NCBI RefSeq assembly: GCF_048403405.1
Contig: NZ_CP183129.1
Source of the DNA: Escherichia coli
GTDB taxonomy: Bacteria > Pseudomonadota > Gammaproteobacteria > Enterobacterales > Enterobacteriaceae
Strand: one strand, 5' to 3'
DNA: 64,000 bases
Shown here: one piece after another, positions 39,456-39,790 of the stretch
Position numbering within the stretch: position 1 is the first letter of the stretch
How the letters are laid out: each line of letters begins with the position of its first letter
Notes under the pieces: generated by a model
What the model was told of the DNA's origin: nothing
Databases searched by the model: none
The model's input: only the letters and a program-made list of their open reading frames with translations
Made by a program: the position numbers and the translations under genes

Positions 39456-39704
39456 TTAGTGAACAAACCACTCGTCAGCAGACTCCCAGGTATCTTTCAG
39501 AGTTTCCTGAACAAAAGTTTTAGCTGAATCTTTATCGGCGGTGCGCGTAACAGAAAGGCCATCGTTGCTGGTAGCTTTTACGATCACCTCTACATCGTCA
39601 TAACGTTTACTGATGCGTCGGGTTAATTCTTCCTTTAACGCATCCACAGCACCGGTTGGCATTTTAGTCATTTTTTCTTTGGCTATGCAGATTTCAATAC
39701 GCAT
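39456..39704 (-). CDS. DinI-family protein (prophage-encoded)
   Basis: 82 aa; MRIE..IAK...P.GA.DAL..EL..R and C-terminal WESADEWFV match DinI. Confidence 0.75.
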
Positions 39705-39717
39705 AAAAGTCCCTCTA

Positions 39718-39765
39718 CACTGTGTTTGTATACAGTATCATTTTTAACTGTATGGATAAACAGTG
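39718..39765. promoter_or_regulatory. Two tandem LexA (SOS) boxes upstream of DinI-like gene
   Basis: CTGT-n8-ACAG at 39720-39735 and 39748-39763, 15-60 bp upstream of start at 39704. Confidence 0.6.
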
Positions 39766-39790
39766 TCAAGGGTGAAGGAAAGTGATTTTT

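Follow-up and report, generated by a model that had tools for sequence, protein, structure and literature searches.

A lambdoid prophage in the window (the whole stretch of 64,000 nucleotides that was analysed) carries at its right end what appears to be a self-contained moron, composed of a predicted sigma-70 promoter with two putative LexA operators, a gene of the DinI family and a stem-loop at the 3' end. SOS-controlled dinI genes of prophages form a known class, of which the gene is a new member with modest regulatory variation; it is distinguished by its tandem operators and by its stand-alone, att-adjacent position in a phage with a predicted cleavable CI repressor. As seen here it is a clean and well-conserved case of an SOS-controlled prophage dinI, the operator architecture of which is not described in the records and papers examined.

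An 82-aa DinI-family open reading frame next to the attachment junction had been proposed in a preliminary description made from the letters alone, and both its family and its location were borne out. The features of the gene and of its surroundings are as follows.

39456..39704, minus strand: DinI-like coding sequence, stop codon included, 82 aa, from profile and structure-database matches
39711..39715, minus strand: Shine-Dalgarno sequence GAGGG, 6 nt 5' of the ATG, read from the sequence
39791-39849, plus strand: four copies of TGGGGCA and one of TGGGACA in the att arm, starting 22 bp beyond the dinI-like -35
39965..39985 (about): attR core within yecE, position assigned by analogy to Stx phages of the same site, in which 21-bp duplications are annotated
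39967-40062: yecE fragment, host side of the prophage junction
5320..5946, minus strand: prophage repressor of 208 aa with HTH_3 and Peptidase_S24 domains and VQAG, GDSM and KK motifs

The protein encoded at 39456-39704 on the minus strand matched the Pfam DinI family (PF06183, E 1.4e-19, model positions 1-63 of 63), phrog_189 'RecA filament binding protein DinI' (E 5.7e-31) and E. coli DinI in the PDB (1GHH/7YWA, E 3.7e-13, residues 1-81), and on these sequence matches it is a member of the DinI family. Against the NCBIfam equivalog model of chromosomal DinI (NF007893) a score of 73 bits was obtained, which is below the cut-off of 111 bits, so that the protein is to be called 'DinI-like' and not an orthologue of chromosomal dinI. 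From the profile scores, the RefSeq name 'DinI-like family protein' is thus the correct naming level. With the chromosomal DinI of E. coli (b1061; 1GHH, 7YWA) the protein shares the Pfam family, the length class and a C-terminal acidic helix, but the two are ~49% identical, and in the window protein two insertions of 2 residues are seen and the N-terminal half is more basic. Overall it is also the more basic of the two, with 14 Lys and Arg residues against 8 in host DinI. While the host gene is chromosomal, the gene described here is phage-borne and att-adjacent.

The window represents chromosomal DNA of E. coli. Homology to K-12 (aspS, yecD) extended from 42957 down to 39967 and ended 96 nt into yecE. 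Left of 39967 lies the lambdoid prophage with its tail fibre genes, head genes, tRNAs and immunity region; it is related, as a mosaic, to the induced phage PhiR49_2. Between the junction and the dinI-like -35 lies an att arm of ~200 bp, and the gene is therefore located next to the attachment junction as had been claimed. Stx1_499 and Stx2_112808 occupy this position in yecE as well, and the site is also that of Stx1a and Stx2d phages in which 21-bp duplications are annotated. The ATGCCCCA repeats of the att arm also precede the dinI-like gene in P-EibC, BP-4795, Stx1_499 and Stx2_112808; the TGGGGCA/TGGGACA repeats are probably Int/Xis arm-type sites and separate from the dinI unit. The repressor at 5320..5946 is, judged by its domains and motifs, of the self-cleaving CI type. 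Elsewhere in the prophage, three tRNA genes are located at 13230-13479 on the plus strand (Met-CAT, Arg-TCG and Arg-TCT), and the side tail fibre protein encoded at 34681-37707 on the plus strand (1008 aa) has a long, repetitive middle part rich in Ala, Ser and Thr.

Two predicted LexA operators on the dinI-like promoter

The SOS/LexA operator has the consensus TACTG(TA)5CAGTA. Candidate operators were scored with a LexA weight matrix of 20 nt derived from 24 published operators of E. coli; yebG and ruvAB, which belong to this set, are present verbatim in the window and served as a check on the matrix and as internal positive controls. The elements upstream of the dinI-like gene and the two control sites are listed below.

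39764..39769, minus strand: -35 hexamer TTGACA, a perfect match abutting the distal box, from the promoter scan
39746..39765, minus strand: candidate distal LexA box CACTGTTTATCCATACAGTT, 16-mer core 39748-39763, filling the -35/-10 spacer
39740..39746, minus strand: predicted -10 element TAAAAAT, between both boxes, from the promoter scan
39718..39737, minus strand: candidate proximal LexA box TACTGTATACAAACACAGTG, 16-mer core 39720-39735, over the predicted transcription start, 21.2 bits
61386-61405: known host LexA operator of yebG, 21.3 bits
45412-45431: known host LexA operator of ruvAB, 20.3 bits

Read on the gene strand, the upstream region has the order TTGACA-CTGTTTATCCATACAG-TTAAAAATGATA-CTGTATACAAACACAG-TGTAGAGGGACTTTT-ATG. 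The preliminary description had named two CTGT-n8-ACAG boxes 28 bp apart as LexA sites. The exact pattern was recovered, with CTGT-N8-ACAG cores at 39720-39735 and 39748-39763 whose starts are 28 bp apart, and at 21.2 bits each the two boxes equal the yebG and ruvAB operators (for the distal box, 21.2 bits on the plus strand and 21.9 bits on the gene strand). Similarly, the heterology-type index of the dinI-like boxes was 5.9-6.1, compared to 6.1 for yebG and 6.7 for ruvAB. According to the consensus prediction both boxes overlap the promoter: the distal one occupies the spacer that follows TTGACA, and the proximal one lies 3' of the -10, which itself matches the consensus at 4 of 6 positions.

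Only four sites in the 64 kb exceeded 12 bits, namely yebG, ruvAB and the two dinI-like boxes, while the next best site reached 11.8 bits; the weight-matrix scan thus detected no other LexA site above 12 bits in the prophage part of the window. The CTGT-N8-ACAG pattern itself occurred four times (0.66 expected). Apart from the dinI-like boxes, it was found in the yebG operator and at 19428, where the score stayed below 12 bits and the match was put down to chance. A divergent promoter on the plus strand (39714-39741, 9 of 12 matches) was likewise dismissed as a by-product of the palindromic boxes, as no credible gene lies to its right.

If the boxes were chance palindromes or decayed relics, the gene would be constitutive or silent. 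We consider this extremely improbable, since two 21-bit sites lie exactly on the promoter elements, whereas sites of at least 20 bits occurred at a mean of 0.005 per sequence among 200 random sequences of 64 kb matched in dinucleotide statistics, and since the core positions are conserved across diverged phages. Operator score, placement and conservation in relatives all favour the earlier assignment of the boxes as LexA sites on the dinI-like promoter. Taken together, LexA control of the dinI-like gene is strongly supported by sequence and conservation, and LexA would be expected to bind both predicted operators in vivo.

In E. coli, LexA control and damage induction of the host dinI gene are demonstrated. 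The gene described here resembles chromosomal dinI in its predicted LexA control and in having a box just 5' of the RBS, but K-12 dinI has a single LexA box (20-mer starting at -39), whereas two boxes precede the phage gene.

Distribution and relation to other phage dinI genes

Of 5426 complete E. coli genomes, 1789 contained the 361-bp module, at most in 7 copies each. It was also present in 107 phage records, including those of mEp460, cdtI, CP-1639 and many Stx1a, Stx2a, Stx2c and Stx2d phages. Homology between the phages stops just upstream of the -35. Beyond this point, mEp460 and 1720a-02 have int, the present prophage has an att arm, and in Stx phages an att arm and nleC are seen. As the similarity ends at the -35 and the neighbours differ, the module behaves as an autonomous moron. 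Located between the tail-fibre genes and att, the dinI-like unit has its own predicted promoter and no phage partner gene, and it has the makeup of a lambdoid moron, with a hairpin lacking a U tract as its 3' structure.

Scans of viral contigs with the single protein and with an alignment gave, among the best 80 matches, almost exclusively E. coli copies of 93-100% identity. Diverged relatives were therefore obtained by tblastn of named phages, after which their upstream regions were read. Both boxes are kept in all E. coli 82-aa relatives examined down to 60% identity; these comprise 1720a-02, PhiR12_2, P-EibC, BP-4795, Stx phages and mEp460. In the E. coli relatives the boxes start 61-62 and 33 nt 5' of the ATG, with an inter-box spacing of 27-29 bp. 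Even in BP-4795 and P-EibC, where the proteins are only 60-63% identical and the box sequences differ, the two-box layout is kept. Both boxes were retained in 30 distinct upstream sequences, among which CTG/CAG of both boxes, the -35 and the -10 were essentially invariant, the sole CTG/CAG exception being a CAA in the distal box of BP-4795. Variation was concentrated in the flanks and in the linker between the boxes, and was also seen around the RBS.

Outside this group single boxes were observed. The relative in Klebsiella P18-100 (68% identity) has one box, and so do the 77-aa Gifsy-type genes of Gifsy-1, mEp237, a Klebsiella phage and an Aeromonas phage, in which it lies at -35 to -39. The latter genes belong to the nin region, where a small ORF and a DUF1367/irsA gene come after them. 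On the sequences compared, the tandem operator is specific to one clade, namely the E. coli form located next to att.

The same module is found in mEp460 (100% protein identity), cdtI (98.8%) and, at ~60-95%, in P-EibC, BP-4795 and the examined Stx phages. In mEp460, cdtI, CP-1639, BP-4795, P-EibC and the Stx1a, 2a, 2c and 2d phages the gene occupies the same place, after the tail-fibre genes and by int or att; the two-box layout was checked in mEp460, BP-4795, P-EibC and the examined Stx phages, while cdtI and CP-1639 are included by similarity only. Between the module described here and those of the phages just named no substantial difference was found. The phage records annotate the dinI-like gene, and that of mEp460 also a promoter at the -35 site, while LexA operators are annotated in none of the records examined. 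A literature search, which was short on subscription journals, revealed neither a functional study of the att-adjacent E. coli form nor a description of its two operators. A variant of 86 aa was observed in the Stx2c phages (Stx2c_JNE090279, 678-935 of the stretch examined) and Stx1a phages of one series; it carries a 4-residue duplication, VDAL-VDAL, in the helix bearing the RecA-contact residues L23 and E26.

[quoted passage not shown] They are the first genes of LexA-controlled dinI-antirepressor-irsA operons (Lemire et al. 2011, PMC3121763), show a 5- to 23-fold damage induction and have single boxes 19 bp from the ATG (PMC8072944). The Gifsy-type genes differ from the gene in the window in their length of 77 aa, an identity of 42%, the single box, their position in the nin region and the antirepressor and DUF1367/irsA genes that follow. 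Further, the Gifsy repressor is not cleaved, whereas the prophage in the window has an S24-type repressor. The gene studied here, in contrast, stands alone at the att end with two boxes and no downstream partner. It is thus not part of an antirepressor operon of the Gifsy type, as shown by the missing antirepressor/irsA partner, the location at the att end and the Peptidase_S24 repressor of its prophage.

Phage 186 Tum and the split P2-like arrangement of PSP3, Fels-2 and CFT073 also represent LexA-controlled DinI-like modules of temperate phages (PMC3121763). There, however, the DinI portion is either joined to an antirepressor or placed beside one, which inactivates a non-cleavable repressor, and such a partner is lacking here. 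In CFT073 (NC_004431.1; 37673-38105 of the stretch examined) replication gene A of the P2-like prophage is succeeded by a small ORF and then by a DinI family gene of 77 aa. This corresponds to the split form of phage-186 tum and adds a third genomic context in which phage DinI genes occur. The 'dinI-like' gene c0943 of CFT073, which was reported to co-vary with SOS genes, belongs to this P2-like prophage and was set aside because of its different context.

Predicted action on RecA and the prophage repressor

Cryo-EM and mutagenesis of the RecA-DinI complex showed that a hydrophobic pocket of DinI (L13/L21/W71/W77/F78) takes F203 of RecA loop L2, and that an acidic patch (E24/E69/D76) faces RecA K232/R243/K245 (PMC9926225). 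In the alignment the pocket residues correspond to M15/L23/W73/W79/F80 of the window protein and the acidic residues to E26/D71/E78, so that of the eight RecA-contact positions five are identical and three conservative. From family membership and contact residues, RecA binding by the window protein is well supported as a prediction. Monomers of lambda CI occupy the same RecA groove, formed by L2 F203 and the K232/R243/K245 patch (PMC9926225).

These findings suggest the following sequence of events. In the lysogen, LexA dimers would sit on the promoter spacer through the distal box and on the start site through the proximal box and keep the gene off. Upon DNA damage, RecA* would stimulate self-cleavage of LexA, both operators would be vacated and the 82-aa protein would be made. 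[quoted passage not shown] The most likely net effect would be that the S24-type CI of this prophage is cleaved more slowly, or at a higher threshold, under stimulation by RecA*, and the same would apply to co-resident CI-type repressors and UmuD. The result would be an incoherent feed-forward delay on induction. The idea of such a feedback on CI cleavage is coherent because an S24 repressor is encoded in the same prophage, the RecA-contact residues are conserved and DinI and CI share elements of the groove; it is mechanistically plausible, with the CI-type repressor as the presumed indirect target. A study of Stx2a phages already suggested that phage dinI 'will ultimately limit the induction' (PMC8456039). 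The model as a whole, in which a moron is derepressed by loss of LexA and its product slows CI cleavage by competing for the RecA* groove, is the reading we favour, and we hold it to be rather probable.

Several observations count against this model. The -10 has four of six matches, the protein scores below the NF007893 cut-off and it is more basic than DinI of the host; given the 73-bit score and the higher Lys and Arg content, its affinity for RecA or its effect on RecA could differ from that of host DinI. DinI stabilises filaments at stoichiometric concentrations, and induction was unchanged in the Gifsy-1 and Gifsy-3 deletions. Moreover, the cell has its own DinI, which could conceal an effect of the DinI-like gene.

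The filament data can be read with the opposite sign, such that the protein mainly stabilises RecA* filaments, prolongs SOS and promotes CI cleavage and lysis in a coherent feed-forward loop. DinI stoichiometric with RecA indeed acts as a positive modulator that stabilises filaments, and it is at high concentration that it inhibits the coprotease (reviewed in PMC6590174); in the cryo-EM work filaments were longer and more numerous with DinI, which was bound at one molecule per two RecA (PMC9926225). At this stoichiometry, however, DinI sits on the very groove elements that CI needs, and bound filaments should exclude CI monomers, while multiple copies of the module per genome would push the dosage towards the inhibitory range. 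We therefore regard a promoting effect as quite unlikely.

The Gifsy result bears on whether the phage switch is affected at all. In the single published genetic test of prophage dinI homologues, non-polar deletions of those of Gifsy-1 and Gifsy-3 left induction unchanged (PMC3121763), as would be expected if the gene were a moron of benefit to the lysogen, which tunes host RecA functions, for example by limiting UmuD cleavage and mutagenesis or recombination, or is redundant with host DinI, and leaves the phage switch and induction kinetics unaffected. Its position between tail-fibre genes and att, its own promoter and the missing phage partner gene are in agreement with such a role, as is the preference of DinI for UmuD cleavage as the target of inhibition (PMC6590174). 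Since Gifsy repressors are not cleaved, however, the deletion test does not address CI-type phages, and the module is strongly retained in the inducible phages PhiR49_2, mEp460 and Stx phages, which counts against this reading. A role restricted to the host therefore appears unlikely, though it deserves some weight.

Should the RecA*-dependent cleavage of CI indeed be modulated by the protein, as the favoured model predicts, this would be a phage-borne control of the amount of damage needed for lambdoid induction. Roughly one in three complete E. coli genomes has the module, as do many Stx1 and Stx2 phages, and its copy number could therefore influence antibiotic-triggered toxin release. A more speculative extension, to which we give little credence, is a phage-encoded timer: the protein would be expressed only once both operators are vacated, compete with CI for the RecA* groove and set the damage threshold for lysis, and in polylysogens (up to 7 copies, O157-type strains) the pooled protein might tune all CI-type prophages and Shiga-toxin output by copy number.

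The 3' flank of the dinI-like gene

Nothing but a stem-loop and, on the opposite strand, a fragment of tfa was found downstream of the dinI-like gene.

39353..39386, minus strand: strong stem-loop predicted by folding, ~70 nt past the stop codon, 13-bp stem, no U tract

The scan detected no canonical terminator for the dinI-like gene, and the stem-loop is the probable 3' end of the transcript or a barrier to it, as judged from the predicted fold. A search for an antirepressor or partner ORF 3' of the gene yielded none; the only frames there are artefacts antisense to the tfa fragment.

In Klebsiella, the dinI mRNA yields the Hfq-dependent sRNA DinR (PMC10907235), and by analogy the 3' part of the dinI-like mRNA, where a strong stem-loop comes after the stop codon, could be processed to an sRNA acting on ftsZ or other targets in SOS. 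The stem-loop lacks a U tail, though, the predicted pairing with the E. coli ftsZ leader was no better than that of shuffled sequences, and no Rfam family matched the dinI-like strand. Moreover, the alignment shows that the protein sequence of the gene is evidently constrained. An RNA product is thus very improbable.

Further observations were made in this flank. A 231-nt direct repeat of 90% identity (38115-38345 and 39164-39394) consists of the tfa 3' end and a hairpin. It brackets a gene for a class I SAM-dependent methyltransferase (38346-39014, minus strand; phrog_2132, function unknown), which has the same orientation as the dinI-like gene and lies ~440 nt downstream of it. The methyltransferase gene looks like a moron inserted via recombination between tfa 3' ends. 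Finally, a near-threshold match to Rfam IS009 (RF02111; 112.5 bits with a gathering threshold of 117, E 7.9e-27) was detected at 39094-39297 on the plus strand, within the truncated tfa copy.
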